A stretch of DNA of 64,000 nt from Candidatus Krumholzibacteriota bacterium (GCA_963727455.1 CAVSGG010000017.1:160001-224000), one strand, 5' to 3'; shown: positions 2,850 to 34,785, numbered from the stretch's first letter. The notes: generated by a model not told the origin, from the letters alone. Numbers and translations are program-made.

Positions 2850-2852
2850 GAT

Positions 2853-5438: not shown

Positions 5439-5444
5439 CGCGAA

Positions 5445-6125: not shown

Positions 6126-6203
6126 CGTTCCTCCTAGGATCCCGACGAGATTGCGCGAAAAGACTAGCAGAGGGCAGGCCAGGTGGCGATCCGCTTCCGC
6201 CCC

Positions 6204-6252
6204 TTGACAGGAAAGCGGGCTCAGAACATACTTTGATCGGTATCCGTACAAA
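6204..6252 (+). promoter_or_regulatory. Sigma70-type promoter overlapped by ROK operator copy 1
   Basis: TTGACA (6204-6209), 17 bp spacer, CATACT (6227-6232), then TTTGATCGGTATCCGTACAAA (6232-6252). Confidence 0.7.
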
Positions 6253-6329
6253 GGGTGACCTTTGTTTCCAGCCGCAGACACTCATCTTTGGGAGTGGATC
6301 CTAGCTCGCATCTCTTCGGAGGTCCTCGC

Positions 6330-7718
6330 GTGAAGCAGCTCGTCGCGTTCTTGTTCGTCCTGTCGGTTCTCGCCCCTCAGTTGGGGTGCAGCGGTCGCGA
6401 CCCCATGGACTTGGAGGTCTCCCGGGCCAAGATCGATCCCGTGGTCTTCGACGATGACTACAGCCCCGACGTCTACTTCCAGGCTTTTGCCCAGACAAAC
6501 GTGGTCGCGGTCCAGCTGGATTCCGTCTACGCCTACAACGGTTACGCGCCCGACGGCGCCCGCTCCCTCAAGATCAACATCGCGCCCGGCGGATCGGCGC
6601 TGGGATCCTACTCCGGAGGAGTCTTGACCTCGGTGGCCAGCCGCGATTTCCTCGACTACAACGCGCTGAGCTTCTGGGCGCGCGCCGATCGAGACATCTC
6701 GCTGGATTTGGCGGGCTTTGGCAATGACAACACCGGCACTTCGCTCTACGAAGCGAGCCGGTCGGGTATCCCGCTCACGCGAGACTGGCAGCACATCATC
6801 GTCCCCATACCCAACCCTTCCAAGCTCATCGCCGAACGCGGGCTCTTCACCTTCGCAGAAGGATTGGAGGAACAGTATCCGGACGGGTACGACATCTGGG
6901 TCGACGAGATCCGTTTCGTCAAGGTCGATAGCCTCACCGTCTTTCGTCCCACCCTACGCTCGGTGAATCGTCAGTACTTTGTGGGCTCCACCGTGAATCT
7001 GGACGGGGCCTCCACCGTCTTCCAGCTGGGCAACACCTTCCTGCCGGTCAATCACTCGCCTAACTACTTCGATTTCGAATCCTCCGATCCTTCTGTGGCC
7101 AAAGTGATCCGGGGCAGGGTCCAGGTGAGCGGCGTGGGAAAGGCGACGATCACCGCGACCTTGCAGGGCTATCCCGCCATCGGCAGCGTGTCGGTTGCCG
7201 GCTACGAGCCTCCTCGTGCGGCACCTCCCACGCCCACGCTTCCGGCTTCCGACGTGATTTCCTTGTGGAGCGACACCTATCCCAACGTCACGGTCGATAC
7301 CTGGAGGGCCGATTGGGGGGGCGTCACCACGCAGGTCGAGGACTACACGGTGGGCAATCGCCACATGAAATTGTATTCCTCGCTGAATTGGGTGGGCATC
7401 GATTTTCTGAACAAGAAGATCGATGCCAGCAGCATGACCCATCTGCACGTGGACGTCTATGCACCGGCTGGTACCAACTTCAAGCTCAAGGTGGTCTCGT
7501 TTCCCTCCCAGCTCACGCATTCGGTGGAAACGCAGGAGAAGATCTTCAACGCCACCTCCACGCCGGCGTTTCATCCCGGCTCGTGGTCCTCGTTGGAGAT
7601 TCCGCTGACGGATTTCCAGTTGCCTACCGATTGGGACTGGAGTCGCATAGGCGAGCTGGTACTCGCTTCGACAGACGCACAACTCGTGCTTGTGGACAAT
7701 CTCTACTGGCACAAATAA
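6330..7718 (+). CDS. Lipoprotein with carbohydrate-binding-like domains and an Ig-like (Big_2) domain; probable glycan-binding protein
   Basis: GTG start after GGAGG; lipobox LGC; jelly-roll-like YNALSFWA...DIWVDEIRF; SSDPSVA.V..G.V...GVG.ATITA Ig domain; APPTPT..ASDVISLWSD.Y domain; lies in the glucan locus. Confidence 0.7.
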   Translation: MKQLVAFLFVLSVLAPQLGCSGRDPMDLEVSRAKIDPVVFDDDYSPDVYFQAFAQTNVVAVQLDSVYAYNGYAPDGARSLKINIAPGGSALGSYSGGVLTSVASRDFLDYNALSFWARADRDISLDLAGFGNDNTGTSLYEASRSGIPLTRDWQHIIVPIPNPSKLIAERGLFTFAEGLEEQYPDGYDIWVDEIRFVKVDSLTVFRPTLRSVNRQYFVGSTVNLDGASTVFQLGNTFLPVNHSPNYFDFESSDPSVAKVIRGRVQVSGVGKATITATLQGYPAIGSVSVAGYEPPRAAPPTPTLPASDVISLWSDTYPNVTVDTWRADWGGVTTQVEDYTVGNRHMKLYSSLNWVGIDFLNKKIDASSMTHLHVDVYAPAGTNFKLKVVSFPSQLTHSVETQEKIFNATSTPAFHPGSWSSLEIPLTDFQLPTDWDWSRIGELVLASTDAQLVLVDNLYWHK

Positions 7719-7761
7719 GATCAGCCTCGCTGAGCCAGCGCCTCTCACGAAGTTGGGCGGG

Positions 7762-9027
7762 ATGCAAAACCACAACCTGAATCGCAGGGGTCTGCGGCGT
7801 ACCGATGCTGACGGTCCGCGCCCCTTGGCCGATGCCGTCCTACGGCTCATCTGGCAGGAACGCCGGATCTCCCGCGCGGAGATCGCGCGGAACGCCAAGC
7901 TCTCCCGTTCTACCGTCTCGGAAATCGTCAATGAGATTCTTCCCATGGGACTCATCGCTGAAATCGGGGAGGGCCCATCCCGTGGCGGCCGACCGCCCAT
8001 CGTGCTGGAGTTCCGGGACGATGCCTGCGTCATTCTGGGGGTGGAGATGGGCGCGACCCACGTGGTGGTCACCCTCATCGATCTGCGTGGGAAGGTGCTG
8101 AGCTGGGAATCGCGTGAGCACCCCGTCCGCAGCGATCCCGCCGGAACCCGTAGACTCATCGCCGAGCTGTGCAAGGCCTGCCTCTTGGCCTCCGCGGTGG
8201 GAGATCGTCCCCTGGTGGGAATCGGAGTCGCGGTGCCATGTCCGGTTGACCCTTTCGGAAACCACCGTCTTTCCACCGTCGTGCTCCCCAAGTGGGAGGG
8301 CGAACTGGGACTCGAGGAACTCGCCAAACAGTACGAGGTCCCTCTGATGGTCGACAATGACGCCAACCTGGGGGCGCTGGCCGAGCACTGGTGGGGTGTG
8401 GGGCGTGGAGTGGACGACATCGCCTACATCAAGGTCGCGACCGGGATCGGTTCGGGTCACGTGGTTGGAGGCGAAATCTACCGGGGTGCCACGGGCGTGG
8501 CGGGGGAGATCGGTCACATTGCGATCGACCCGCAAGGAAAGCCCTGTATCTGTGGGCTGCGCGGGTGCTTGGTCACCCTGATCGGGGGGCAGGCTTTGCT
8601 GGAGCGGGCGGCGGAACTGCGCAGCGAGTACCCGCGGAGCACCCTGGCGAAAGGGGAACCCAGCGTGCGGGAGATCGAGGATGCAGCGCTGGCCGGCGAT
8701 CCTCTGGCCCTGCATGTCGCGCAGGAAGCGGCCAACTACTTGGGTCGAGCCGTGGCCAGTCTCTTGAATCTCATGAACCCCTCGCTCGTGATCGTGGGGG
8801 GAGATCTGGCCAGGCTGGGGGACCTGCTCATCCACCCCCTGCGCGATACGGTGGAGAAGAGAACCTTGGTCAGTTCGGTTGCAGCGGCTCAGATTCGCGC
8901 CAGTGAGCTGGGCTTTCGTTCCACCGCGATCGGCGCAGCGACCCTGGTTCTCAAGGCTGCCCTGGCCGACTCCCGGCTATTCCCGCGCGTCCCCGCTCCT
9001 AAATCGCCAGCTGCACATAGGTCCTGA
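7762..9027 (+). CDS. ROK family transcriptional repressor (NagC/XylR type)
   Basis: N-terminal HTH (ISRAEIA...LSRSTVSEIV), GGRPP, DNDAN.GALAE, G.AGEIGH and C.CG..GCL motifs. Confidence 0.93.
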   Translation: MQNHNLNRRGLRRTDADGPRPLADAVLRLIWQERRISRAEIARNAKLSRSTVSEIVNEILPMGLIAEIGEGPSRGGRPPIVLEFRDDACVILGVEMGATHVVVTLIDLRGKVLSWESREHPVRSDPAGTRRLIAELCKACLLASAVGDRPLVGIGVAVPCPVDPFGNHRLSTVVLPKWEGELGLEELAKQYEVPLMVDNDANLGALAEHWWGVGRGVDDIAYIKVATGIGSGHVVGGEIYRGATGVAGEIGHIAIDPQGKPCICGLRGCLVTLIGGQALLERAAELRSEYPRSTLAKGEPSVREIEDAALAGDPLALHVAQEAANYLGRAVASLLNLMNPSLVIVGGDLARLGDLLIHPLRDTVEKRTLVSSVAAAQIRASELGFRSTAIGAATLVLKAALADSRLFPRVPAPKSPAAHRS

Positions 9028-12000: not shown

Positions 12001-12202
12001 TCATCCCGAAGACCATGAAGTCCTGGCCGTCCACCTGGAGCCGGCTGCCCTCCGCGTCGTTCACGACCGTGATGGAAGGCAACTCGGTGCCGCTCGCCCG
12101 CGCGCTGCCGGCGGCAAGCAGTAGGGGCAGAACCAGGATCATCCTCCAACTCACCCGGAGCAGACGGAGTCGTAAGGAGTTGCTACTTGGGATCGGTTTC
12201 AC
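8999..12202 (-). CDS. Secreted GH2-like (clan GH-A) TIM-barrel glycoside hydrolase with a ~550 aa beta-strand-rich C-terminal region
   Basis: Signal peptide; LLGNENNYG (acid/base) and LFTEFGAD (nucleophile) motifs. GTG at 12202 has GAGGGG upstream and overlaps the GH1 stop. Confidence 0.78.
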   Translation of the reverse strand: MKPIPSSNSLRLRLLRVSWRMILVLPLLLAAGSARASGTELPSITVVNDAEGSRLQVDGQDFMVFGMNWGYLPIGQNYSYDFWGQPDDFIVAVLAREMPLLKSMGINTIRQAPGMQPRWIEYMWRNYGIYTILNDTVGRYGVTIDGVWYPTTDYSDPKVRAFLKERLAAEVDRYKGTPGVLMWLLGNENNYGLSWSSFEIEALPKGEQNAARARFLYSLFGEIIQDIKKRDPDHPVAIANGDVQYIDIIAQECPGLDVFGSNVYRGVSARDFFQVVHDKLGIPALFTEFGADAFNAITMKEDQASQAYYLLGQWEEIYEQSAGKGQANNAIGGLIFQWSDGWWKFGQDSRLDIHDTNASWPNGGYPTDYREGDNNMNEEWWGITAKGFPDAQGFYEVYPRAAYYALRDAFVLDPYASTTDLQTIRKHFRAIEPMAEVLKARGDAASYEADLLKKVRVSGLRMEFESYSTGGKNISTPKSTNPQDSYPSFLGFDHGESFFAEIEAKPNEGVIGRLSLNVLGNVPQNPIDEIFYENRGRPQTFLDENGNPVEVQSLERVKVYQADLSWDDRWFKLDSFYRTGHLHWQYEGDFFGLYRDAFYGENLDIYNGEAPIGFEIAGKKFFNGFKLAMGPQLWWGANPAVFLKYDRKLAGIEWTGMYQEDFTQRTQATSSIAIPIRSTRKASLQMQTGLGPFGFEGGLLWSGQPRVGETFQLVDEKIVDAGGPVAPEDVRQDKIKPEDTFGFKGKLTWEHGRWHWYGEGAYMGLVAEAGPTAIPTFTGWDLRDSGMGNQVNALSGVAVTMGNWQIGPNFLWQKPIVGPMPNSSDLAGTTGRPRNVLDDPFAVRANRETTGGELMITYDPTPATWMWAWDSDLREDAKFAASLGFSLKRHHTTADAGLFISADNTILAFPGATPARDLWELHGRTIHRLSSRVRMISHFYYGTAEPNGDNPRLVHRVGVDSRIVWPSISLAGFVKVHDYGPYDYHHDHNLTFPLQLMADVSFTLGTPRWFDLPQTRIGVQGTFRTLNRYSNRYQPEGATAPAEGSLYPEGLPLGREWEIRTYVQLAI

Positions 12203-13613
12203 GGGATTCCCCTCGAGTCTGGGTGGAAGTGGAGGCCGCGGCGAGTTTCGCCGGGATCTCGACGACAGCATTCGCGGAAACGACCTCTTTGTAGTAGTGG
12301 GCGCTGTCTTTGGGCAGTCGCTGTTGGGAGTCGAAGTCGACGGAGAAGATGCCGAACTTCTTCTTGTAGCCAAAGCCCCACTCGAAATTGTCCAGCAGCG
12401 ACCACAAGAAATACCCTTTCAGTGGCACGCCGTCCTCGATGGCGCGGTGAGCTTCTGAGAGGTGCGCGCGCAGGTATTCGATTCGCTTGGTGTCGGCAAT
12501 GCGATCCAGGGAATCGACGGAGTAGTCGTAGGCGGCGCCGTTCTCGGTGATGTAGATCTCGCGCGGTCCGTAATCCCGGTGGACACGAAGCAAGCTCTCG
12601 TAGAGCCCTTGAGGGTAGACCTCCCAGCCCATGTCGGTCAGCTCATGAGGTGGGGCCACCTTCAGGTCCTTGGGACGCCCATCCGCTCCGCCCTTCATTA
12701 CGACTCGGCTGTAGTAGTTCAGTCCCAGAAAATCCAGGGGGGCGGCGATGGCCAGCATGTCGCCATCCTGCACAAAGGGCAGCTTGGGACCTTTCAGGTG
12801 ACCCGCGCGAATCCTGTCCTCCACCGCATCGGGGGGATAGGAGCCCAGGAACAGGGGGTCGAGGTACCAACGGTGGAAAAAGCCGTCGAACCAGCGCGAC
12901 GCGTCGCGGTCCCTCGCGCTGGAACTGGCCGGATGCGCCGGGCAATGGATGATGACGATGCCCAGTTTCACGCGCGGCGACTCGTCACGCATGACTTTAC
13001 AGGCCCAGCCGTGGGAGAGCAGTAGATGGTGGGCCACACGGAGCGCCTCGGAAGGATCGGTGTGTCCGGGCGCGTGATGCCCCTCCTCGTGTCCCAGAGT
13101 CGTCACGCACCACGGTTCGTTGTGGGTCACCCAGCGATCGACGCGATCCCCCAGCCGGCGGACCACTGCCTGGCTGTATTCGACGAAAGCCTTGGCCGTG
13201 TCGCGCTTGCTCCAGCCACCGCGTTCCTGGAGCGCCTGCGGCAGGTCCCAGTGATAGAGGGTGGGGAAGGGCTCGATGCCGGCTTGCAGCAACGCGTCCA
13301 CCAGGGCGTCGTAGAAGTCGAGTCCGGAGCCATTGAGCTGCCCGTAACCGCGCGGAAAAACTCGCGGCCAGGAAATGGAGAAACGGTACGCCCCGAGGCC
13401 AAGCCACTTCATCAGCGCCAGGTCTTCCCGCCAGCGGTGGTAATGGTCACAGGCGATATCGGGGGTGGAGGCGTCCTCGATGGCCCCCGGCCGGGCCGCA
13501 AAGCGATCCCAGATGGAATCGCCGCGGCCACCTTCGTGCCGGCCGCCCTCGATCTGCTGGGCGGAGGTAGCGACCCCCCATACGAAGTCCTTCGGGAACT
13601 CCAAATTGGCCAT
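12183..13613 (-). CDS. GH1 beta-glucosidase
   Basis: FPKDFVWGVATSAQQIEGG, TLYHWDLPQ, THNEP, YITENG and WSLLDNFEW motifs; no signal peptide. Start at MANLEF (13613). Confidence 0.95.
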   Translation of the reverse strand: MANLEFPKDFVWGVATSAQQIEGGRHEGGRGDSIWDRFAARPGAIEDASTPDIACDHYHRWREDLALMKWLGLGAYRFSISWPRVFPRGYGQLNGSGLDFYDALVDALLQAGIEPFPTLYHWDLPQALQERGGWSKRDTAKAFVEYSQAVVRRLGDRVDRWVTHNEPWCVTTLGHEEGHHAPGHTDPSEALRVAHHLLLSHGWACKVMRDESPRVKLGIVIIHCPAHPASSSARDRDASRWFDGFFHRWYLDPLFLGSYPPDAVEDRIRAGHLKGPKLPFVQDGDMLAIAAPLDFLGLNYYSRVVMKGGADGRPKDLKVAPPHELTDMGWEVYPQGLYESLLRVHRDYGPREIYITENGAAYDYSVDSLDRIADTKRIEYLRAHLSEAHRAIEDGVPLKGYFLWSLLDNFEWGFGYKKKFGIFSVDFDSQQRLPKDSAHYYKEVVSANAVVEIPAKLAAASTSTQTRGESRETDPK

Positions 13614-13697
13614 GCTGCTCCGACTCTTCCCGGGTGCCGCCTCAGGGACGGGAGTCCTTCCCCGGGGCTGGTCCGGCGAATTCCCTGAAAAAGAATC

Positions 13698-13744
13698 TTT
13701 GTTCGGACTCCGAACATAGTGTATGATAGCAAGGGCGGTGTCAA
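13698..13744 (-). promoter_or_regulatory. ROK operator copy 2 overlapping the GH1 promoter in a divergent intergenic region
   Basis: TTTGTTCGGACTCCGAACATA at 13698-13718. Minus strand has TTGACA (13744-13739), 17 bp, CACTAT (13721-13716). Confidence 0.75.
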
Positions 13745-13787
13745 GCCCGCTCTTCCTCTGAGTTTCTCCGAAAGAGAGGTCACTACA

Positions 13788-14765
13788 ATGCGAAATCTGG
13801 TCATCGCCGTCCTGGCCGTCACGGCGCTTCTCTACCCACTCGCGACCCTCGCGCAGCCTTTGGCTTCGTATACACAGAATTTCGAGAGCCTGGTCCAGAG
13901 CGACGCCAACGCTCTGACCAACGACGGTTGGCTGGTTTACGGAAACGTCTATGACACCGACGGTACCACCTATCTGTACGGTTACGGTTCCTACCCGGCG
14001 CCCAACAACGGCGCTGCATTCTGTCAGATCGCCATTGGCGAAGGTGGATTGGAGCAGGGCGCACAGCAGCTCGTCGTGTTCAGCGACTACGAGAACACCG
14101 ATCACGCTTTGGGCTACTACATCGAGTCCAACGTCTTTCAGGAGCAGCCGATCGGCAGCGATGATGTCGGGAACACTTGGGTCTTCGAGTTCGACGCGAA
14201 GCTCGGCAATTTGGAACTCCTTTCTACCGCCTTGGCCTTCATCAAGACCATCGATCCGAACAACGGCTATGCGACCACCAACTTCATCACTTCGGACATG
14301 ACGAGCATTCCCTCGACATGGAATCACTACTCGCTGTCCATCACGATCGACGCGGGCCTGGTCGGCCAGTTGTGTCAGTTCGGTTTCTCGAACACCGCAA
14401 CCCTGTACCAGGGTTCGGGGGTCTTCTACGACAACATCAGCTTCCATCTGCAGGACGTGACGGGGACCACTCCAGTTCGTGCCTCAGTCGATGCGATCCT
14501 GCACCAAAACTACCCGAATCCCTTCAATCCCAGCACGAGCATCGAGTTCACCCTGAACAAGTCGCAGAGCGTCGAGCTTTCAGTCTTCGACATCGCGGGC
14601 CGTCGCGTGACCACTCTGCTGAAGGGCACCCTGGGCGAAGGTGATCATACGGTGCGTTGGAACGGACGGAGCGAGAATGGCGCTTCTGTGGCTTCAGGAC
14701 GCTACAGCTACGTCTTGCGGACGCAGAGCGGAGAGCTGTCGGGAAACATGATTCTCTTGAAGTAG
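13788..14765 (+). CDS. Secreted protein: ~200 aa beta-sandwich-like domain of unknown function plus FlgD-Ig/T9SS-type-A-like C-terminal domain
   Basis: Signal peptide; tail LHQNYPNPFNPST.I.F...V.LSVFDIAGRRV..L....WNG....G..VASG.Y; paralog of 20069-20800. Confidence 0.8.
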   Translation: MRNLVIAVLAVTALLYPLATLAQPLASYTQNFESLVQSDANALTNDGWLVYGNVYDTDGTTYLYGYGSYPAPNNGAAFCQIAIGEGGLEQGAQQLVVFSDYENTDHALGYYIESNVFQEQPIGSDDVGNTWVFEFDAKLGNLELLSTALAFIKTIDPNNGYATTNFITSDMTSIPSTWNHYSLSITIDAGLVGQLCQFGFSNTATLYQGSGVFYDNISFHLQDVTGTTPVRASVDAILHQNYPNPFNPSTSIEFTLNKSQSVELSVFDIAGRRVTTLLKGTLGEGDHTVRWNGRSENGASVASGRYSYVLRTQSGELSGNMILLK

Positions 14766-14790
14766 AAACCCCTTGCCGCGAGAGATGGCG

Positions 14791-17700
14791 ATGAAGACCA
14801 AGTCCAATCCCACGCCGGAAGTGCGCCCTGGGGAGATCCTCGGGGAATTCCCCAAAGGAGAATTCGTTCGTTTGGACGGGGAGATGTACTACCGGATCGC
14901 GGCGTACGACCTTCTCGAGCCCTTCCTGATGAGCGTGCCGAGCAACACGGACCTCTGGATGTTCGTTGCCTCGGGTGGTGGGTTAACAGCCGGTCGCGTC
15001 GACGCCGACGGAAGTCTGTTTCCCTACCGAACGGTGGACAAACTGCACGATGCCCATTATCACACGGGTCCTCTCAGCTCGATACAGCTCGAGGGAGCCG
15101 AAGGAAGGGTCCTACGCTGGGATCCGTTCGCGAGCGATGCGCTGCACAGTGCCGCGATCGAGAGGAACCTCTACAAAAATCCCTTCGGCAATCGGCTGGT
15201 GTTCGAAGAGATCCATCACGAACTCGGTCTTGCGTTTCGCTATCGCTGGGCGGCTTGTGATGAATTCGGTTGGGTGCGGACGGTCACTCTCGAGAACCGC
15301 TCCGAACGATTGGCGCGGATCACAGTGCTGGATGGACTCAGAAACATCCTTCCCTACGGTGCTCCACTCTCACTCTATCAGCAGGCGAGCAACTTGATTG
15401 ACGCCTACAAGCGATCCGAGGTAGATCGAGAGACCGGACTCGGCATTTTCTCGCTCACCTCCTGTATTACCGACCGGGCAGAAGCTCTGGAGATGCTCAA
15501 GGCGAACACCGTCTGGTGTTGCGGTCTGCAGAGATTCAAGGTCCATCTTTCGCTGGATGTGGCGAAGGACTTCCATGCACGGAAGGTATTGGGCGAAGAC
15601 AAAGTGCTGAGCGGTGCCCGCGGCAACTATCTGGTAAGCGCGCCCTTGGAAGTGAAACCGGGGGAGGTCGCTCGCTGGCACATCGTGGGCGATACCGGTT
15701 CGGATCAGGTTCGAATCGCCGCTCTCCGGCGGAAACTCCTCGAGGAAGATGATCTCAGCGCAGTCGTGGAAGAGAAGCTTCGCGAGGCGGAGAGAGATTT
15801 GCGACGTAACGTGGGAAGCGCGGACGGCCTGCAGCTAACCGCGCACCCGGAAAACTGGGTGCATCATTTCACGAATGTTCTGTTCAACAACATGCGCGGA
15901 GGAGTGTTTTTCAACAACTACTCCGTTCCTATCGGGGACTTCCGGGATTTTCTGCAGGTACGAAATCGTGAGGTTGCGAAGCGGCGCGCGTCGACCCTCG
16001 AGTCGTTGTCGAATTTCTCCGAGATCGAGGAAATTCAAGCCGTGGCACGGGCCTCGCACGATCGCAACTTCGAACGCCTGAGCTACGAGTATCTGCCTCT
16101 CTACTTCGGACGCCGTCACGGTGATCCCAGCCGTCCCTGGAATAGCTTCTCCATTCGAACCAAGAACGAAGCGGGCGTGAAGATTCTGAATTACCAGGGC
16201 AACTGGCGCGACATCTTCCAGAATTGGGAAGCACTAGGCGCGTCCTTTCCGGGATTCCTTCCCAGCATGGTAGCCAAGTTCGTCAATGCCTCCACGGTGG
16301 ACGGGTTCAACCCCTACCGCATCACGCGCGACGGAGTGGACTGGGAAATCGCGGAAGCAGATGACCCCTGGAGCAACATCGGCTATTGGGGCGATCATCA
16401 GATCATCTACCTCTTGAAGCTTCTGGAGAACCTGGATCGCCATCAACCGGAAGCGCTGGGCAAACTGCTAGGTCAGGAGATCTTCAGTTACACCGAAGTT
16501 CCCTACCGAATCCGTCCCTACGAGCAAATTCTGAAGAATCCGCGTCAGACCATCGACTTCGATCATGCCCTCGCGGCGCGCATCGAGCAGAGAGTCAAGT
16601 GCCTGGGAACCGACGGGAAACTTCTGTCAGCGGCCGATGGCTCCACCTACCATGCGAATCTCTTCGAGAAGCTGTTGGTGCCGGCCCTCTCCAAGCTGTC
16701 GAATTTCATCCTCGATGCCGGCATCTGGATGAACACTCAGCGCCCTGAATGGAACGATGCGAACAACGTGCTGGGGGGCGGGGGCGTCTCGGTGGTCACC
16801 CTTTGTCACCTCAGGCGCTACCTGGCGTTCATCGGGGAGCGATTCGAGCGATCGACGCAGGCCGAATTCCCCGTCGCGGGCGAGATCATCGATTGGTTGG
16901 ACGGCATCGAAGTCACTCTTCGCGAGGAGCACGAGCGACTCTCGGGCGAAGAATTGGGCGCGGTCGATCGCAAGCGCATGATGGACGCTCTGGGGAGCAT
17001 CTTTTCGCGATACCGCGATCAGGTCTACGCGAACGGATTCTCGAAAAAGCGCAGCCTAGAGGCGTCCAGGGCCGCCGCACTCTGTCGGCTCGCTCTCGCG
17101 CTTATCGATCGGGCGATCGACGCCAACCGCCGCGAGGACGGGCTCTACCACACCTACAATCTGCTGGAGATCGACGAGGTCCAGGGAACGGCCGAAGTGA
17201 TCCACTTACAGGTCATGCTGGAAGGCCAGGTCGCCGCGCTCAGTTCGGGGCACCTGTCTCCCGAAGAGGCGCTGGAGATTCTGCAGCGGCTCTTCAGCAG
17301 TTCGCTCTACCAGGCACAGCAACGCAGTTTCCTGCTCTATCCCGATCGGGAACTCCCGGGCTTCATGGCCCGGAACGTCATTCCGAGCGGGCGGGTGCAA
17401 TCCATCCCACTCCTCGTCGATCTCCTCGCGCGGGGCAATCGTTCGATCGTGGCGCGTGACGCGGAAGGAATGTTCCGTTTCCACGGGGAGTTCAAGTGCG
17501 CGCACGACTTGGCCCTTGCGCTGGAAGTTCTCGAGGAGCAGGAGGAATGGCAGAGCGGGGTCCGCCGGGACCGCGAGCAGGTTCTCGATCTCTTCGAAGA
17601 AGTCTTTGCCCACAAATCTTATACCGGGCGCTCCGGAGTCATGTTCGGCTACGAGGGCCTGGGCTGCATCTACTGGCACATGGTGGCCAAGCTGTTGCTG

Positions 17701-18291
17701 GCCGTGCAGGAGAACTTCCTGCGGGCGGAGGAGATCGGTGCATCGGCGTCGGTGCGCGAGGACCTGGCCAGCATGTATTTCAGGGTGCGTGCTGGGATCG
17801 GCTACGAGAAGTCCGTCGAGGAATACGGCGCTTTTCCCACTGATCCCTACTCTCATACCCCGGCCAGCGGAGGAGCGAAACAGCCGGGCATGACCGGTCA
17901 GGTCAAAGAGGAGATTCTCACGAGGCGCGGCGAGCTGGGCGTGAAGGTCCAGGAGGGCTGCCTGCGTTTTCATCCCCAACTTCTGAGCCAGCAAGAGCTT
18001 CTCGAGCAGCCCGAGGTTTTCCATTATTTCGACCTGGCCGGAGAAGAGCAGACCCTCGCCTTGTCCGAGGGCAGTCTGGTATTCACCTTGTGTCAGGTAC
18101 CGGTGGTCTTCCGGCGCGCGGCGGCGAAGCCGTGCATGCTGCTCGAGTTTGTCGATGGCAACTCGAGACTGGTGCCCGGCGATACCCTTCCGCCCGAGTT
18201 GAGCAGCGAGCTCTTCTCGCGCAGCGGCCGCATCCAGAAGATCACGGTGGACCTTGCAATAGGCAGCTTCCGCTCGAACAACCGGAGATGA
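14791..18291 (+). CDS. GH149 beta-1,3-glucan phosphorylase (probable)
   Basis: ~1166 aa, no signal peptide; RRHGDPSRPWN.F, YQGNWRDIFQNWEAL, YEGLGCIYWHMV.KL, GAFPTDPYSHTP and QPGMTGQVKE blocks recalled as conserved in GH149; GH16/GH17 neighbours. Confidence 0.8.
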   Translation: MKTKSNPTPEVRPGEILGEFPKGEFVRLDGEMYYRIAAYDLLEPFLMSVPSNTDLWMFVASGGGLTAGRVDADGSLFPYRTVDKLHDAHYHTGPLSSIQLEGAEGRVLRWDPFASDALHSAAIERNLYKNPFGNRLVFEEIHHELGLAFRYRWAACDEFGWVRTVTLENRSERLARITVLDGLRNILPYGAPLSLYQQASNLIDAYKRSEVDRETGLGIFSLTSCITDRAEALEMLKANTVWCCGLQRFKVHLSLDVAKDFHARKVLGEDKVLSGARGNYLVSAPLEVKPGEVARWHIVGDTGSDQVRIAALRRKLLEEDDLSAVVEEKLREAERDLRRNVGSADGLQLTAHPENWVHHFTNVLFNNMRGGVFFNNYSVPIGDFRDFLQVRNREVAKRRASTLESLSNFSEIEEIQAVARASHDRNFERLSYEYLPLYFGRRHGDPSRPWNSFSIRTKNEAGVKILNYQGNWRDIFQNWEALGASFPGFLPSMVAKFVNASTVDGFNPYRITRDGVDWEIAEADDPWSNIGYWGDHQIIYLLKLLENLDRHQPEALGKLLGQEIFSYTEVPYRIRPYEQILKNPRQTIDFDHALAARIEQRVKCLGTDGKLLSAADGSTYHANLFEKLLVPALSKLSNFILDAGIWMNTQRPEWNDANNVLGGGGVSVVTLCHLRRYLAFIGERFERSTQAEFPVAGEIIDWLDGIEVTLREEHERLSGEELGAVDRKRMMDALGSIFSRYRDQVYANGFSKKRSLEASRAAALCRLALALIDRAIDANRREDGLYHTYNLLEIDEVQGTAEVIHLQVMLEGQVAALSSGHLSPEEALEILQRLFSSSLYQAQQRSFLLYPDRELPGFMARNVIPSGRVQSIPLLVDLLARGNRSIVARDAEGMFRFHGEFKCAHDLALALEVLEEQEEWQSGVRRDREQVLDLFEEVFAHKSYTGRSGVMFGYEGLGCIYWHMVAKLLLAVQENFLRAEEIGASASVREDLASMYFRVRAGIGYEKSVEEYGAFPTDPYSHTPASGGAKQPGMTGQVKEEILTRRGELGVKVQEGCLRFHPQLLSQQELLEQPEVFHYFDLAGEEQTLALSEGSLVFTLCQVPVVFRRAAAKPCMLLEFVDGNSRLVPGDTLPPELSSELFSRSGRIQKITVDLAIGSFRSNNRR

Positions 18292-18293
18292 CG

Positions 18294-19907
18294 ATGCACC
18301 TGAAAAAGCTCTGCTACGCGCTGGTGATTCTGATTTGTCTGGCCACGGTTCCCTTCGGCCAGGCGCGGGCACAGTGCATTCTTGCCAATCCCAGCTTCGA
18401 GCTGTCCGGATCGGGGGGGCATACCTTTGGCGGCTGGGAGCAGTTCGGCGCGGTAGGTTCCGTGACCGTCGCATCGCACGGTGCCAAAGCTGCGCGCGTC
18501 TCGGGTCCGAACTACGGAGGTTGGGACGTGTCCGCCTATTGGCAAAGCCAGGATTGCTCGGTGGGCGAGCAGTGGAAGGTCACGGGGCACGTCCTGGTGC
18601 CCTCCAGCAAGCCTCTGGTGGGAGATTGCATTGCACTGGTGAACGTCGAGTGGCGCGATTCGGGGGGCAACCTCATCGACTATGATTCCTTCACCGTGGC
18701 CGATGCCGGCTCTCCGACCGATACCTACCTGGATTTCGATGTGACGAGCGGTCCGGCGCCTTTGGGCACGGTCTCCGCCCGTCTGTTGCTGGGGGTTCTG
18801 CAGAGCCCCAGCGATCCGAGCCCTGACGTCTACTACGACCAGGTCACCTTCTTTTCGACTTCCTATCCGACGATCGACGATGTGCAGTGGAACGACTTTC
18901 CCGGCGGGAAAACCGTGAGCTTCGGCGGGTACACCTGGCGCGTCAAAGGGCCCGGATTCTACGGTCCCGGAGCCAATCTCTTCTGCGACTCGTCGGACTG
19001 CGTTTGGGTGGATGCGAGCGACCAACTTCATATCACGCTCAAGAACCGCAGCGGTTCCTGGTACAGCACCGAGGTCGTGAATGAACAGGCATTGGGCTAC
19101 GGGGACTACATTCTGACTACGGTGGGCCGTCTGGACCTCATCGATCCGCAGGCCGTGCTAGGGATCTTTTTGTGGCAGTACGGTCCCTGCTGGGATGAGG
19201 GCTATCTGTGGTGGAATCCCTTCAACGAAATCGACATCGAATACAGCCGCTGGCAGAACCCCTCAGCCGACATCGCCCAGTTCGTCGCGCAGCCTTTCGA
19301 CTATCCCGGCAACATTACGCGCTTCGACGCTAGCTTCACGGCAAATGAGGTCACCAGTCATGCGATGCGCTGGTTGCCCGACCGCGTAGAGTACCGCGTA
19401 TGGCGCGGAGGCCCACAGGACGAATCTCCGGCGAACCTTATCGCCTCGTGGACCTACACGGGGCCGCACATTCCCCGTCCGGAGCAGCCCCGCATGCACC
19501 TGAACCTGTGGAGAATCGACGGCACGCCGGCCTCGAACCAGGAAGTGATCTTCCAGGATTTCACTTTCATTCCCGAGGGGGGCGCCACCGCGGTGGAGGA
19601 GGGGACCTCCCGTTCGATTCCCTCGCACGCGGCAGCTCGTCTCTATCCCGCGGTTCCCAATCCTTTCAACCCCCAAACGACCCTGCGCTTCGAGCTGGCA
19701 AAGGACGGGCAGGTACAGCTGCAGGTCTTCGACCGCAGCGGCCGCCATGTGCGGACTCTGGAAAATCGCTACCTCACGGCGGGTGCGCACTGGGCCGTGT
19801 GGAACGGGAAGGACGATCAGGGCAGGGCGGTGGCTTCAGGGGTGTACTTCCTGCGCTTGAGCGGTGAGGGCTTTCAGGAGAGCCAGAGGGTGGCGCTGGT
19901 GAAGTAG
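18294..19907 (+). CDS. Secreted GH16-like glucanase with N-terminal CBM-like module and FlgD-Ig/T9SS-A-like tail
   Basis: Signal peptide; LANPSFE...YYDQVTF CBM4/9-like module; catalytic EIDIE motif; MHLNLW; tail PNPFNPQT...WNGKD..G..VASGVYF. Confidence 0.8.
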   Translation: MHLKKLCYALVILICLATVPFGQARAQCILANPSFELSGSGGHTFGGWEQFGAVGSVTVASHGAKAARVSGPNYGGWDVSAYWQSQDCSVGEQWKVTGHVLVPSSKPLVGDCIALVNVEWRDSGGNLIDYDSFTVADAGSPTDTYLDFDVTSGPAPLGTVSARLLLGVLQSPSDPSPDVYYDQVTFFSTSYPTIDDVQWNDFPGGKTVSFGGYTWRVKGPGFYGPGANLFCDSSDCVWVDASDQLHITLKNRSGSWYSTEVVNEQALGYGDYILTTVGRLDLIDPQAVLGIFLWQYGPCWDEGYLWWNPFNEIDIEYSRWQNPSADIAQFVAQPFDYPGNITRFDASFTANEVTSHAMRWLPDRVEYRVWRGGPQDESPANLIASWTYTGPHIPRPEQPRMHLNLWRIDGTPASNQEVIFQDFTFIPEGGATAVEEGTSRSIPSHAAARLYPAVPNPFNPQTTLRFELAKDGQVQLQVFDRSGRHVRTLENRYLTAGAHWAVWNGKDDQGRAVASGVYFLRLSGEGFQESQRVALVK

Positions 19908-20000
19908 GGTCCTTGGCCAGGCCCTGCGGGGTGAGGGCTCTCCGGACAGTTCATGATCTCAAGGACAGAACCGACCCCACGATCTCAAGAGCAGAATAGA

Positions 20001-20040
20001 AAGGAAGAGGGGCCCGGAGATTCCGGACCCCTCTTTCTTC
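20001..20040. terminator. Probable bidirectional intrinsic terminator between convergent genes
   Basis: Stem AAGAGGGGCCCGGA / TCCGGACCCCTCTT with A-rich and T-rich flanks. Confidence 0.65.
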
Positions 20041-20068
20041 GCTGGAAACTCGATTCCAAATTTCAGGC

Positions 20069-20800
20069 TTAGCGATACAGCGCCTTGACCTTGCCCCAGC
20101 TGGAAGCCTGGGTGGGAATTGCACCGTTCATGTAGAAGCTCAGGTTATCGTAGAATATCCCCGAAGGTTCGTAGTTCGCGGCGCGGTTCGAGAAGCCGAA
20201 CTGCAGAACCTGGCCGGCCAGAGCCGGGTCGATCGCGATCGAAAGAGCGTAATCGCCCCAGGTGGTGGGAATACTGGTCATGTCGACCGTGATGTAATTC
20301 GTGGTCGCATAGCCGGCGCCCGGATCCAGGGTCTTGATGAAGGCCAGGGCAGTGGAAGCGCCGGCCAGATCTCCATGCTTGGCCTGGAAAGTGAAGTACC
20401 AGGTTTGGCCGACGTCGCCAGCACCGATTGTCTGCTCATGGAACACGTTGGATTCGATGATGTTGCCATTGGCGTGATCGCCATTGTTGTAGTCGCTGAA
20501 CACGGACAACTGCTGGACGCCCTGGGCAGCGCCACCCTGACCGTCCGCGATCGTGCAGAACGCGTAGGGGGGGCCACTGTTGGGGGCGGGATAGACACCG
20601 TAGCCGTAGAGGTAGCTGACACCGTCGGGGGCGAAGACGTTACCGAAGACCAGCCAGCCGTCGGCAGCAAGCGCGCCGGTATCGGTCAGACCGAGGCCCT
20701 CGAAATCTTGGCTGTAGCCCACCAGCTGAGCGCTCGCCAGCACCGGCACCAGGCAGATCAGCAACACGGCCGCGAAAATAGCAGTAGCTCGATTGATCAT
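20069..20800 (-). CDS. Secreted protein, paralog of 13788-14765, ending in a short SWGKVKALYR tail
   Basis: Signal peptide; shares GWLV.GNV, YLYGYG.YPAPN, VFSDY, IESNVF.EQ, STALAFIKT.DP and QFGFSN blocks with the paralog; ends IPTQASSWGKVKALYR. Confidence 0.82.
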   Translation of the reverse strand: MINRATAIFAAVLLICLVPVLASAQLVGYSQDFEGLGLTDTGALAADGWLVFGNVFAPDGVSYLYGYGVYPAPNSGPPYAFCTIADGQGGAAQGVQQLSVFSDYNNGDHANGNIIESNVFHEQTIGAGDVGQTWYFTFQAKHGDLAGASTALAFIKTLDPGAGYATTNYITVDMTSIPTTWGDYALSIAIDPALAGQVLQFGFSNRAANYEPSGIFYDNLSFYMNGAIPTQASSWGKVKALYR

Positions 20801-20915
20801 CTCGATATCCTCTCGTTAATGCGATCCTGTTTTCTTGCTACCGAAAGGCACTTGGAATCGGCGCAGTCTCCCCACAGCGGCAGTAGTGGCTGATTCCCGT
20901 ACCTCTAGTCTATAC

Positions 20916-20936
20916 TATGTTCGGTGACCGAATCAA
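20916..20936. promoter_or_regulatory. ROK operator copy 3
   Basis: TATGTTCGGTGACCGAATCAA upstream of the 20800 gene. Confidence 0.6.
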
Positions 20937-20988
20937 GTCGAAGATTGACCCGGAGCAGCAAAATCACGCAAACTGGCCCAAAATTCTG

Positions 20989-21035
20989 TTGACCGCTTCG
21001 CCGGCGAGGGGTACTTTGTTCGTATGTCGAACAAA
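20989..21035 (+). promoter_or_regulatory. MFS-GH17 promoter with ROK operator copy 4 (perfect arms)
   Basis: TTGACC (20989-20994), 17 bp, TACTTT (21012-21017); TTTGTTCGTATGTCGAACAAA at 21015-21035. Confidence 0.78.
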
Positions 21036-21092
21036 GAAGCCGCTTCCCAAGCCTAGCCTCGGCAAGCCCAAGTTCCCCAACGAGATGGCGCC

Positions 21093-22565
21093 ATGAACCC
21101 AGCCGTGCACGCCAAGACAGCTCCGGAGGACCGGGTTCCTTTCCTGCAGCGACTGGCCTACGGCTCAGGCGCCTTCGTCAACAACCTGCTGGCCGCGGCG
21201 AGCGGCGGCATGATGATCGTGCTGAATCTGGGCTTGGGGATGAATCCCGGCCTGGTCGGCCTGCTAGGGGCTCTGCCTCGTCTCACCGACGCCTTTACCG
21301 ATCCCCTCATGGGATACATTTCGGACAACACCCACACCCGCTGGGGACGGCGGCGGCCCTATATTTTCAGCGGCGCCATCGCGGCGGGGGTGATCTTCGC
21401 TCTCCTATGGCAGTTGCCGCGGGGACAGAGCGAGACCTTCTACTTCGTCTTTTTCCTCGTCGGTTCGATTCTCTTCTACGCCGGCTACACGGTCTTCGCT
21501 ACCCCCTGGGTCGCTCTGGGCTACGAACTCACGCCGGACTACAATGAGCGCACGCGCCTCATGGGAACCCAGAATTTCATCGGTCAGCTCGCGTACGTCG
21601 TCTCGCCCTGGTTTCTGTGGATCATGAACTCCGGCAGGTTCTTCCCGGATCAGGTCTCTGGAGCGGCCGGACTGGCCATCATCGTCGCCGTGGTTGCCAT
21701 CGGCTTGGGAATTCTGCCGGCGATCTTTCTGCGGGAACGCATGAAGCAGGTGGCGGCGGAGGAAATGGACCTCAAGTCGGAGCCCGGGGCCAGCGGTCTC
21801 CTGCACAACATCAAGGAATTTTTGAGAGGTTCGAAGGTCACGCTTTCCAACGGGCCCTTCCTCAAGTTGTGTATGGCTACCTTTCTCGTCTTCAACGGTT
21901 TCATGCTCATCGCCTCCTTTCAGTATTACGTGATCATCTACTACGTCTGCGGTGGTGACCAGACCGCGGGCGCCAAGTACGCCGGCCTGGCCGGTACGGT
22001 GGGCGCGGTGTGCACTTTCGCCGTCGTGGCATTCGTCACCTGGCTCGGCACGCGGATCGGAAAGCGGCACACCTTCTTCCTTGCGATCGGACTCTCCATC
22101 ATCGGTTATGGTCTGAAGTGGGTTTGCTACAACCCCCAGATGCCTCTTCTGGTGGTTCTCCCCGCACCCCTGATGGCCTTCGGCTTGGGCGGGCTGTTCA
22201 CGCTGGTTCCCTCCATGATCGCCGACGTGGTCGACACCGATGAACTCACGACCCACGAACGACGCGAAGGGATGTTTGGCTCCATTTTCTGGTGGATGGT
22301 GAAACTGGGCATGGCCGCGGCGCTGGCGGGCGGCGGCTATCTCCTGAACGCCACCGGTTTCAACGTCGATCTGGGGGGAAATCAAGCCGCGCGGTCCATC
22401 ATCCTCTTGCGGCTGTGCGACGCGGGAATTCCCATGCTGACTTCGGCCCTGGCAATCTGGGCTGTGTCACGCTTCCCCATCTCCGAGGAGAAGGCCCTTC
22501 AAGTGCGCCAGGAGTTGGAACGTCGCCGAGGACGCGCGCCGGTGGTCGAGGCTCTGAAGGGATAG
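21093..22565 (+). CDS. MFS sugar transporter, GPH/MelB-like family
   Basis: DAFTDPLMG.ISD.T.TRWGRRRPY, LTPDYNERT and SMIADVVD..EL....RREG motifs; about 12 TM segments. Confidence 0.92.
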   Translation: MNPAVHAKTAPEDRVPFLQRLAYGSGAFVNNLLAAASGGMMIVLNLGLGMNPGLVGLLGALPRLTDAFTDPLMGYISDNTHTRWGRRRPYIFSGAIAAGVIFALLWQLPRGQSETFYFVFFLVGSILFYAGYTVFATPWVALGYELTPDYNERTRLMGTQNFIGQLAYVVSPWFLWIMNSGRFFPDQVSGAAGLAIIVAVVAIGLGILPAIFLRERMKQVAAEEMDLKSEPGASGLLHNIKEFLRGSKVTLSNGPFLKLCMATFLVFNGFMLIASFQYYVIIYYVCGGDQTAGAKYAGLAGTVGAVCTFAVVAFVTWLGTRIGKRHTFFLAIGLSIIGYGLKWVCYNPQMPLLVVLPAPLMAFGLGGLFTLVPSMIADVVDTDELTTHERREGMFGSIFWWMVKLGMAAALAGGGYLLNATGFNVDLGGNQAARSIILLRLCDAGIPMLTSALAIWAVSRFPISEEKALQVRQELERRRGRAPVVEALKG

Positions 22566-22569
22566 GATC

Positions 22570-23565
22570 ATGCAGTTGCGCGGCGCAGTGCTTATCCTGC
22601 TCTTAGTCCTCTTCGCTGCTGGTCCCGTGGAGGCTACCCGCGGCGGAGCCGTGACCGGTTCACTTTCCCCAGGAGGAGAACCGTTTTCCATGCGCCCACT
22701 TCAGCTGAATCTACAGGGCATCTGGATCGGCAACGCGATCTGCTATAGCCCCTATCGCGACGGGCAGAACCCCGACGGCGCTTCCCCCAGCTCCGCGCAG
22801 CTTCGCGAGGATTTGCAGCTGATGCTGCCTCACTGGAATCTGCTGCGCACCTACGGGTCCTCGGGTTACGTCGAAGAGCTTCTCTCAATCATCCGAGAGG
22901 AAGAATTGCCCATGCGAGTCATGCTGGGGGTTTGGCTCACGCCGCGGGATTCAACGGCGAACGTGCGAGAGATCGACGAGTCGATTCGCCTGGCCAATGC
23001 GTTTCCTACGATTGTCATCGCGGTATGCGTGGGGAACGAAACGCGCGTCGCTTGGTCGGACCACCGTCTACCGGTGGAAGTTCTCGTTGATGCGATTCGT
23101 CGCGTGCGGGGAAGGGTCGAGGTCCCGGTGACCACCGCCGACGATTTCAAGTACTGGAATCAGGAGGAGAGTCGGAAAGTCGCGGGCGAGATCGATTTCC
23201 TCACCATGCACGCGCACCCTCTGTGGAATGGCATTCAACTTGAGGATGCTCTTCCGTGGCTGGAGCGCCAAGTGGACGCGGTGCAGGCGATACATCCCGA
23301 GAGCGTGATCGTGCTCGGGGAGACGGGGTGGGCCACCGACCACTCCGAAGAGGGGGAGCAGGGTGAACTGATCAAGGGCCAAACGGGGGCACGCCAACAG
23401 AAGCAGTTCTATGAAGCCACTCGTGACTGGGCCAAGCGCAAGACGATCCCGACCTTCATCTTCGAGGCCTTCGACGAGAACTGGAAGGGGGGCGATGATC
23501 CCCAGGAGGTAGAGAAGCATTGGGGTCTCTTCCGCGCGGATCGCACGCCAAAGAGCGAATTCTAG
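22570..23565 (+). CDS. Exported GH17 beta-1,3-glucanase/transglucosylase
   Basis: YSPYRDGQ.P, LRTYG, VCVGNE, LGETGW, FEAFDE.WK and EKHWGLF..DRTPK motifs; signal peptide. Confidence 0.9.
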   Translation: MQLRGAVLILLLVLFAAGPVEATRGGAVTGSLSPGGEPFSMRPLQLNLQGIWIGNAICYSPYRDGQNPDGASPSSAQLREDLQLMLPHWNLLRTYGSSGYVEELLSIIREEELPMRVMLGVWLTPRDSTANVREIDESIRLANAFPTIVIAVCVGNETRVAWSDHRLPVEVLVDAIRRVRGRVEVPVTTADDFKYWNQEESRKVAGEIDFLTMHAHPLWNGIQLEDALPWLERQVDAVQAIHPESVIVLGETGWATDHSEEGEQGELIKGQTGARQQKQFYEATRDWAKRKTIPTFIFEAFDENWKGGDDPQEVEKHWGLFRADRTPKSEF

Positions 23566-27101: not shown

Positions 27102-27222
27102 GTGTTCTCACTCGTGTTTTTCAGCGTTCTGTATTGGATCGGAATCGTCTTGACCAGTGTTGGGCATTCTCACTCTCATCGTTCTCTTCTTGATCGATGC
27201 TGGAAGGAAGAAGCTATGGTAA
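27102..27222 (+). CDS. Small membrane protein (39 aa) masked by a +1 insertion
   Basis: Removing one A at 27156 gives MFSLVFFSVLYWIGIVLTVLGILTLIVLFLIDAGRKKLW*. GGAGG lies upstream and its TAA overlaps the next ATG (TAATG). Confidence 0.6.
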
Positions 27223-34659: not shown

Positions 34660-34757
34660 GTTGTTCCTTTCATAACACCCTGAATGTTATTCTTTTAATA
34701 ACCTAATCTCTAACTCCTTGAAAGCAAAGGGGTTTTTTGGCTGGCATCGCAGCTGCA
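34643..34757 (+). promoter_or_regulatory. Sigma54 promoter with upstream activator-like sites and an IHF-like site
   Basis: TGGCATCGCAGCTGCA at 34742-34757 (GG-N10-GC); TGT-N10-ACA at 34643-34658 and 34662-34677; IHF-like TAACTCCTTGAAA at 34711-34723. Confidence 0.75.
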
Positions 34758-34785
34758 ATAGGGTGGGGCCAAGGAGGAATCCAGC

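Follow-up and report, generated by a model that had tools for sequence, protein, structure and literature searches.

A candidate C-terminal targeting tag on Sec-exported proteins of Krumholzibacteriota, Eisenbacteria and related bacteria

The type A C-terminal domain (CTD) of type IX secretion systems (T9SS; models TIGR04183 and PF18962) occupies the extreme C-terminus of Sec-exported proteins, is independent of the passenger family and can be interchanged between paralogues with the tail described below. In the PEP-CTERM/exosortase, LPXTG/sortase and GlyGly-CTERM/rhombosortase signals, a motif precedes a transmembrane helix and a cluster of basic residues. Here we analyzed a stretch of 64,000 nucleotides from Candidatus Krumholzibacteriota bacterium (CAVSGG010000017.1:160001-224000; hereafter the window, meaning the whole stretch), in which two paralogous secreted proteins, A and B, have one domain in common and differ in their ends. 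A ends in a T9SS type A CTD, and B ends in the ten-residue tail SWGKVKALYR. Judged from the sequences collected below, this tail is one instance of a tag of the form [ST]-W-G-x-V-K-[SA]-L-[YF]-R-COOH, preceded by a loosely conserved P-V-P-T-E-x-x linker and carried by predicted Sec-exported proteins of Krumholzibacteriota, Eisenbacteria and related lineages of the Fibrobacteres-Chlorobi-Bacteroidetes (FCB) group. On balance, we consider it somewhat probable that this is a portable, family-independent C-terminal targeting or docking tag that is read at the free C-terminus. The observations support that it is general, terminal, selected as a peptide, associated with signal peptides, placed outside the domain fold and exchanged with the T9SS domain.

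The tag resembles the T9SS CTD, which in A is a PF13860 variant with the PNPFNP motif, in its position, its independence of family and its interchangeability. Both also tend to end in two hydrophobic residues and K or R at the carboxylate, with a basic residue 4-5 positions upstream. However, in the CTD 70-100 residues fold into an Ig-like sandwich; the tag comprises 10-17 flexible residues, is matched by no T9SS model and contains a W-G that has no counterpart in the CTD. The sortase-type signals are likewise short, family-independent C-terminal tags of secreted proteins, but their hydrophobic run is absent from the tag (SSWGKVKALYR in B), and a search of NCBIfam with 25 tail 30-mers gave no match at E ≤ 10.

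NCBIfam also contains "choice-of-anchor" families, which are named for homologues with different sorting-signal ends. The domain of B behaves in a similar way, its homologues ending in WG tails, PNPF-type CTDs or PEP-CTERM-like ends, yet it matches none of the named models. To our knowledge, the WG tail is not among the defining anchors of these families. The secretin S-domain (PulD-PulS type) is a short disordered C-terminal peptide that turns helical on an outer-membrane-targeted pilotin and so fixes the destination of the protein. By analogy, this would be the closest known parallel for the action of the tag, although the S-domain is confined to a single protein family and does not resemble the tag in sequence, and a pilotin-like partner was not found near the tail genes. 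The outer-membrane β-signal is the C-terminal strand of a β-barrel and ends in an aromatic residue. In contrast, B appears to be a soluble β-sandwich, and in 100 of 112 homologues the aromatic residue stands at -1 from the end, before a final R or other polar residue. Tags and the swapping of anchors are known; what appears to be new here is a tag without a transmembrane helix or a folded domain.

The A/B pair and the tail in the B family

The features of the pair are listed below in window coordinates.

13788..14765 (+): protein A, 325 aa; signal peptide, predicted β-sandwich like a carbohydrate-binding module (CBM), and FlgD-Ig/T9SS type A CTD
13788..13853 (+): Sec signal peptide predicted at residues 1-22 of A, ending ...ATLA before QP (from the sequence, by heuristic)
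13854..14453 (+): ~200 aa domain of A in common with B (alignment with B and 12 A-type homologues)
14511..14762 (+): FlgD-Ig-like/T9SS type A CTD of A, residues 242-325, ending ...NMILLK (TIGR04183, PF13860)
20069..20800 (-): protein B, 243 aa; signal peptide, domain in common with A, linker and short tail
20729..20800 (-): Sec signal peptide predicted at residues 1-24 of B, ending ...ASA before QL (from the sequence, by heuristic; helix 2-16 in the model)
20129..20725 (-): predicted CBM-like β-sandwich domain of B, residues 26-224 (AlphaFold2 strands 29 to 224, predicted local distance difference test (pLDDT) 80-98 by block; Foldseek)
20102..20128 (-): linker of B, residues 225-233, MNGAIPTQA; loose consensus P-V-[PA]-T-E-x-x (position frequencies, low pLDDT)
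20072..20101 (-): tag SWGKVKALYR of B, residues 234-243; stop codon at 20069-20071

A sequence-only reading of the window had described A and B as closely alike over ~200 aa, with A continuing into a ~90 aa FlgD-Ig tail and B ending in SWGKVKALYR. The likeness was borne out by BLASTP, which gave 138 identities over 236 positions (58%, E 6e-92) between residues 1-233 of A and 1-233 of B, signal peptides included. The FlgD-Ig domain is present, matching PF13860 FlgD_ig (44 bits, cut-off 27, residues 250-315) and the T9SS type A sorting domain TIGR04183 (28.1 bits, cut-off 23, residues 242-316), while PF18962 stayed under its cut-off (23.1 bits against 27); its length had to be corrected to about 84-90 aa. 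B ends as described (...NGAIPTQASSWGKVKALYR followed by the stop codon), except that the conserved tag also reaches upstream of SWG into the loosely conserved linker. No part of B matched Pfam or NCBIfam. The start of A at 13788 (MRNLV...) sits within a longer GTG-initiated open reading frame (ORF) from 13719, and it is the start at 13788, not that at 13719, which yields a signal-peptide-like N-terminus.

The motif WG.[IVLM]K..[YFW] occurred a single time in the six frames of the window, in B, and a degenerate DNA pattern of tail plus stop codon was found once against 0.00 expected (100 shuffles). The tail of B might be what is left of the first strand in A, or of the linker preceding its CTD, but this idea was dropped, as no similarity to ...QDVTGTTPVRASVDAILHQNYPNPF... 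could be seen by eye.

The 120 best homologues of B comprised 114 short proteins (≤290 aa) and six long A-type proteins with a FlgD domain. The tail was present in 112 of the 114 short proteins, over 58-96% identity, and the two without it ended in ...PVELMSFSIE. Among the 112, the first position was [ST] in 98%, followed by W (77%; F 12%), G (71%; S 21%, together 92%), a variable residue, V (73%; L 13%), K (99%), S (57%) or A (36%), L (86%) and Y (53%) or F (47%). Exactly one residue followed the Y/F in 100 of the 112, and R accounted for 68% at this position. A quick-mode tree was built from 101 domain sequences; 44 of its 98 inner branches were unresolved, and it gives neither the number nor the direction of tag swaps. 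On this tree the WG tail needed 7 changes, compared with 32 on average after shuffling, and the FlgD CTD needed 4, compared with 8.7. The tail types are clustered on the tree, therefore suggesting that A-type and B-type proteins are stably inherited paralogues and not the product of a one-off event.

The AlphaFold2 model of B (109-sequence alignment) had a mean pLDDT of 90.4, a predicted template modelling score of 0.83 and a β-sandwich at residues 26-224. Only 19 residues follow this domain. In the final two 10-residue blocks the pLDDT fell to 60 and 49, and residues 235-240 were drawn as a short helix, so the tail lies outside the fold and is not part of it; paralogue A retains the domain fold without the tail. 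A Foldseek search of the PDB with the model gave a phage tailspike domain as best match (E 2e-6), and CBM16, CBM22, CBM61 and CBM4 with E values between 7e-6 and 1e-4 and modest template modelling scores (0.31-0.43 by query, 0.44-0.62 by target). The B profile found no relatives among PDB sequences, and Pfam likewise contained no match for the shared domain. On the model, the domain of A and B is predicted to be a CBM-like glycan-binding module.

This domain is widespread: one search gave 1206 homologues and another 671 representative clusters, each at E ≤ 1e-3, and the close homologues bear the names Krumholzibacteria and Eiseniibacteriota. Among 149 representatives, regular expressions picked out a WG tail after the domain in 6, a PNPF-type CTD in 4 and a PEP-CTERM-like end in 11, and a transmembrane segment plus Arg and an Asp/Gly-rich, dockerin-like end were also seen by eye. 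Homologous domains thus carry at least four types of end, the PEP-CTERM-like ones occurring in other lineages.

These data also bear on a rival reading, in which the tail anchors its carrier peripherally and non-specifically to a membrane: a short amphipathic helix with a W/V/L/Y-F face and K and R flanks would dip into the interface and act with no dedicated receptor. The C-terminal helices of PBP5/6 and the membrane-targeting sequence of MinD are parallels. A flexible tail outside the fold, the modelled helix at 235-240 and a helical wheel of the consensus, in which W, V, L and Y/F fall within ~120 degrees and K and R at the edges, agree with such an anchor. However, residue identity is conserved and not just hydrophobicity (K, [ST], G/S and the single residue past the aromatic, as above), which is typical of protein recognition, and ten residues are very short for stable binding of a monomer to a membrane. 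Conserved residue identity together with the fixed distance to the C-terminus therefore favours protein recognition at the free C-terminus over a generic amphipathic anchor, which we regard as unlikely.

The tag on unrelated secreted proteins

To follow the tag beyond the B family, DNA of one genome per species was scanned with the degenerate pattern TGG GGN NNN GTN AAR DSN CTN TWY MGN plus stop. At least 128 stretches were obtained, and full flanks were taken for 80 loci. With a true stop required and duplicates removed, at least 134 distinct ORFs end in [ST]WGxVKxL[YF]R-stop, four of which matched the hidden Markov model of the B domain among the matches listed. The tail is therefore not peculiar to B. 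BLAST sorted the 73 full-length tag ORFs (≥130 aa) into 48 clusters of up to 6 members. Pfam domains were found in 17 of these proteins and none in the other 56; they included LTD (three), Beta_helix (three), DUF7451 (three), CHRD, DUF642, PD40, CBM_4_9, M10, plastocyanin-like, SGL and DUF4440, and no C-terminal Pfam model matched any of the 73.

A chance match, a DNA-level repeat or an annotation artefact might produce such a set, since the motif is short and, by our own rough arithmetic, some tens of random matches to the DNA pattern are expected in 596 Gb. Positions left free in the pattern are nevertheless biased in 130 of the ORFs (numbered upstream from the Trp: T/S at -1 in 92%, E at -4 in 46%, P/A at -6 in 69%, V/T at -7 in 77% and P/V at -8 in 57%), which indicates that the tag is not due to chance. 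The 134 ORFs had 134 different 30-mers, used all three stop codons and had no conserved downstream bases; this free variation at synonymous positions argues for selection at the peptide level. In addition, five related FCB-group names cover 72 of the 125 tag loci, and the tail is kept in the B family over the range of identities given above. An origin by chance or artefact is almost certainly wrong. As a side observation, a Cys lies ≤18 residues upstream of the Trp in 69 of 130 tails, mostly 10-11 upstream and frequently in the form ...C-x-x-[VP]-x-T-x-x-x-[ST]-W-G; B has no such Cys.

The 125 loci were labelled as follows.

35/125: Eisenbacteria/Eiseniibacteriota
17/125: "Fibrobacteraceae"/Fibrobacter metagenome-assembled genomes (MAGs)
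14/125: Krumholzibacteria(-iia)
3/125: Latescibacteria
3/125: Gemmatimonadota(-etes)
3/125: odd labels on short contigs (Verrucomicrobiia, Limnocylindria, Reyranella)
50/125: unnamed bacteria

The position of the motif was analyzed in the six frames of these loci with a relaxed motif and ORFs of ≥80 aa. Of 166 occurrences, 143 had one residue after the motif, 13 had 2-5, three had 6-20 and seven had more than 20; several of the internal copies were Arg-rich and probably in non-coding frames. Twenty-nine terminal copies fell outside the DNA pattern used for locus selection. In one 420 aa ORF of locus L033, the protein is present a second time after an internal tail, as if neighbouring genes had been fused through loss of a stop codon.

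Carriers of the tail mostly begin like exported proteins. By our own heuristic, with any start codon allowed, a signal-peptide-like start was present in 91 of 101 tail ORFs and 208 of 627 controls. With Met starts only, the numbers were 85 of 103 tail ORFs, 26 of 33 CTD ORFs and 116 of 597 others (Fisher p 2e-35), so that tail proteins without a signal-peptide-like start are the minority and the rate is like that of CTD cargo. The median ORF length was 274 aa for tail proteins and 650 aa for CTD proteins. Tail genes were also clustered, with seven in L033, five in L029 and four each in L011 and L013. A lipobox-like start was found in 15 of 105 tail ORFs, mostly of one family, against 40 of 673 others, which also speaks against the generic membrane anchor considered above. 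A tail family with lipoprotein-type signal peptides (...L[AV][SL]GC) was seen at L033:8068-13395, where it forms a tandem array of seven genes, in L011 and at L007:10004-11413.

A profile of 41 tails from different families was used against a set of 5.8 billion proteins. Of the 8000 candidates scored, 50 reached E ≤ 10, and the 47 new proteins among these all end in the tag. Those with a name were called "hypothetical protein" or after the passenger ("lamin tail domain-containing protein"), never after a sorting signal. A feature search of the ESM Atlas with the last 22 residues returned nothing usable, a homologue search for longer proteins with residues 204-243 of B yielded no candidate that had three words in common with it, and a description of the tag was not found in the open PMC and bioRxiv literature, subscription journals and supplements lying outside this search. 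The tag is thus undescribed by Pfam and NCBIfam models and in the open literature searched, and an earlier mention is possible elsewhere.

Exchange with the T9SS domain and proposed mode of action

A FlgD-type CTD was carried by 39 of the 796 ORFs in the flanks, and no ORF had both ends. For 10 of 109 tail ORFs there was a passenger homologue with a PNPF-type CTD, often the neighbouring gene; examples are L008 (adjacent genes, 67% identity over 181 aa), L039, L068 and L071. The exchange of tail and CTD in other families makes the A/B swap one case of a recurrent pattern, in agreement with the earlier proposal that the short tail holds the position of a sorting signal.

The exchange also bears on whether the tail has anything to do with sorting. 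It could instead be a peptide that functions after localisation, in oligomerisation, as an inhibitor, in ligand binding or as a signal to periplasmic proteases for stability or degradation, and that was spread among secreted proteins by recombination. The carriers are mostly small single-domain proteins and could share a functional class, and machinery was not found among the neighbours of tail genes, as would suit such a peptide. Against this, the passengers are unrelated (48 clusters with varied Pfam domains), the tail is strictly terminal, it takes the place of T9SS domains, PEP-CTERM-like and other anchor-type ends in homologues, and signal-peptide-like starts are as frequent as in T9SS-domain cargo. 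A non-sorting role has, in our estimation, a small probability.

The last residues of tag and CTD were compared. In 38 flank CTDs these follow T-x-[KR]-hydrophobic-x-L(74%)-[VL]-[RK](98%), and the tail follows V-K-[SA]-L(86%)-[YF]-R. The ending hydrophobic-hydrophobic-[KR]-COOH was present in 32 of the 38 CTDs and in 66 of 114 B-family proteins, which had been selected without the DNA pattern, as compared with 10 of 635 other ORFs; it was present in 90 of 105 tail ORFs of the loci, a set selected by the DNA pattern. Since this rare ending is common to both, a link of the tag to the T9SS is possible. According to the sections of PMC11285876 available to us, the C-terminal strand of the CTD with its conserved Lys ("motif C-t.") is needed for T9SS export, loss of two C-terminal residues stops the secretion of RgpB, and earlier work cited there placed the signal of HBP35 in the last 22 residues. 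The same sections describe a KLIKK end common to T9SS cargo of Tannerella forsythia, including its peptidases. This five-residue basic and hydrophobic end can be compared with K-[SA]-L-[YF]-R of the tag, except that KLIKK, as described there, closes a complete folded CTD, whereas the tag is a free-standing tail. A complex was predicted for the CTD of A (residues 228-325) and the 32 C-terminal residues of B, to see whether the tail could dock on a CTD and ride along through the T9SS; its score of 0.01 (mark 0.32) speaks neither for nor against this route.

Neighbouring genes were compared by BLAST clustering of the 796 ORFs, by phmmer on 1726 ORFs with tails and CTDs masked, and by Pfam and NCBIfam on selected neighbours. 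The recurring neighbours of tail genes included general ones, namely ABC ATPases, histidine kinases, extracytoplasmic function (ECF) sigma factors and MarR regulators, and PMT_2 genes occurred near tail genes in two loci and the window. Among 75 independent loci (1.04 Mb), four had a PorU-like C25 peptidase gene at a distance of ~2-6 kb from tail genes, a count made without the number of copies per genome:

L012:11589-15638: PorU-like C25 peptidase gene
L013:3-2288: PorU-like C25 peptidase gene
L040:3-2693: PorU-like C25 peptidase gene
L042:~3203-5044: PorU-like C25 peptidase gene

Their best NCBIfam match was NF033707 (E 7e-77 and 3e-61), under the equivalog cut-off. We take the closeness of C25 genes to tail genes as a lead and not as a result, although it may reflect a real enrichment. 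The C25 peptidase of L040 bears a FlgD-type CTD of its own.

Large M14 zinc carboxypeptidases were observed near tail genes in three loci (L031:5328-8138, L072:625-3504 and L075:5602-9045); that a carboxypeptidase trimming the terminal Arg would bare an aromatic C-terminus is pure speculation. Three loci contain an operon of nqr/rnf type (NqrB/RnfD and two Rnf-Nqr subunits), followed by ApbE and then a tail gene on the same strand:

L031:10003-15238: nqr/rnf-ApbE-tail operon
L072:5379-10554: nqr/rnf-ApbE-tail operon
L077:10003-17668: nqr/rnf-ApbE-tail operon

The tail proteins of L031 and L072 are alike, and that of L077 is like the B domain.

The tail could instead be a covalent processing or attachment site, at which a transpeptidase would join the Lys or a trimmed C-terminus to peptidoglycan, lipopolysaccharide or another protein, the candidates being a C25 sortase of PorU type and an L,D-transpeptidase. 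Parallels are found in Braun's lipoprotein (Lpp), with its C-terminal Lys, and in Gram-positive pili, with the Lys of the pilin motif. The Lys is indeed the most conserved residue, its distance to the C-terminus is fixed, and C25 and M14 genes lie near tails in the four and three loci above. However, these genes never sit right beside a tail gene, their nearness is no more than a lead, and the Lys is not terminal, unlike that of Lpp. We know of no system with such a motif. Covalent attachment through the tag is, accordingly, judged improbable.

For the tag as a signal read at the free C-terminus, the following mode of action can be proposed. After Sec export, the passenger domain would fold and the tail would remain flexible. 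A dedicated envelope protein would then bind the tail at its free C-terminus. Recognition would rest on the Trp-Gly and the invariant Lys, on the pair of Leu and aromatic residue, and on the fixed spacing of one residue between this pair and the carboxylate. Binding would set the destination of the carrier, which may be held or tethered at the outer membrane or cell surface, or handed to an export step. A would take the T9SS route, at whose end a PorU-type sortase would probably cleave and attach it, and B the route of the short tag. In the leading version of this proposal, machinery associated with the T9SS would read the tag as a stripped-down form of the last-strand motif of the CTD. That a receptor binds the tag, which protein this would be, where it would direct its carriers and that A and B would meet different fates is what we infer from the comparison of sequences. 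More tentatively, and with slightly less than an even balance in its favour, the tag may be the address label of an unrecognised envelope-targeting route, with a surface or outer-membrane receptor or shuttle, or of a T9SS branch that would do without a folded CTD and read just a free peptide like the last strand. In Eisenbacteria, Krumholzibacteriota, Latescibacteria, Gemmatimonadota and their relatives, such a route would serve small secreted proteins by the dozen in each genome.

Several points weigh against a targeting tag of this kind or against its link to the T9SS. No gene family is consistently beside tail genes, and a receptor or processing enzyme was not found among the neighbours. 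The signal-peptide test and the gene calling are crude home-made heuristics, with at least one spurious ORF in GC-rich loci, and all carriers are uncultured MAGs whose labels are possibly wrong. Because a lipobox-like start is already present in 15 of 105 tail ORFs, the tag is no mere substitute for a membrane anchor. Same-strand adjacency of tail and CTD genes was not significant (8/105 against 22/634, p 0.059). In a position-specific scoring matrix of CTD ends, tails were only modestly over background and far under CTDs (medians -10, -17 and +17, respectively; p 8e-15 against background for the B family). The conserved Lys of the tag lies one position nearer the C-terminus than that of the CTD, and the tail of B is modelled as a short helix of low confidence, not as a strand. 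The available sections of PMC11285876 state that the T9SS needs a folded CTD of 70-100 residues, which a tail of 10-17 aa cannot be. By the definition of a T9SS CTD as a folded Ig-like β-sandwich of that length, the tail of B is not one, with its 19 residues after the domain and no model match.

Locus setting and significance

The A/B pair is located in a β-1,3-glucan utilisation locus, with the following neighbours.

7690..9027: ROK protein
12183..13550 (-): glycoside hydrolase family 1 (GH1) β-glucosidase (TIGR03356, 562.6 bits, cut-off 478.5)
14773..18291 (+): GH149 β-1,3-glucan phosphorylase (NF058639, 1493 bits, cut-off 1150)
18288..19907 (+): secreted 539 aa protein with a FlgD/T9SS type A domain like that of A, convergent with B (PF13860 37.2 bits, TIGR04183 27.6 bits)
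21093..22565 (+): GPH/MFS_2 sugar:cation symporter, divergent from B (PF13347, 220 bits)
22570..23565 (+): GH17-like secreted glycosidase (PF00332, 47.8 bits)

The 539 aa protein contains an EIDIE motif, which we take to be GH16-like, and Pfam gave no GH16 match for it. A 1124 aa protein within 7690-23565 had a weak match to a GH2 TIM barrel. As a whole, 7690-23565 looks like an apparently complete utilisation locus for β-1,3-glucan of laminarin type in an FCB bacterium outside the Bacteroidota.

No T9SS core genes were detected with Pfam and NCBIfam among the genes of the window. A third protein with a T9SS type A CTD is encoded at 31606-33093 (+; TIGR04183 39.1 bits, PF18962 27.8 bits); it had a weak, sub-threshold match to choice-of-anchor R (21.9 bits, cut-off 30). 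Elsewhere in the window, an aspartate/ornithine carbamoyltransferase at 27102-28333 (+) is seemingly split into overlapping ORFs (OTCace_N at 27102-27689, OTCace at 27653-28333), which could be due to a frameshift or a sequencing error. A nitric-oxide handling cluster at 33100-37778 comprises a GAF sigma-54 activator (NorR-like), a ScdA/hemerythrin protein and a NorB fused to a cytochrome c-like domain. A 930 aa multihaem cytochrome (c7, c3, paired CXXCH motifs) fused to a cytochrome b561-like membrane domain is encoded at 43052-45844 (-), and genes for VTC-domain, CotH-kinase-like and DUF4956 proteins lie in series at 2160-6281 (-), beside a PMT_2 glycosyltransferase (619-2163).

The C-terminal sorting tags LPXTG, PEP-CTERM and the T9SS CTD each led to a dedicated machine, and they allow prediction of surface proteomes from sequence. 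The tag described here labels a large set of mostly unannotated small secreted proteins of uncultured FCB phyla. Many of its carriers have lectin- or adhesin-like folds (CBM-like, LTD, β-helix, CHRD), and some are encoded in polysaccharide-utilisation loci. Natural pairs of paralogues such as A and B are ready-made controls. If the tag is linked to the T9SS, it would challenge the need for a folded domain of 70-100 residues. If it is a true address label, it would define a new exported sub-proteome and provide a handle for finding its receptor.

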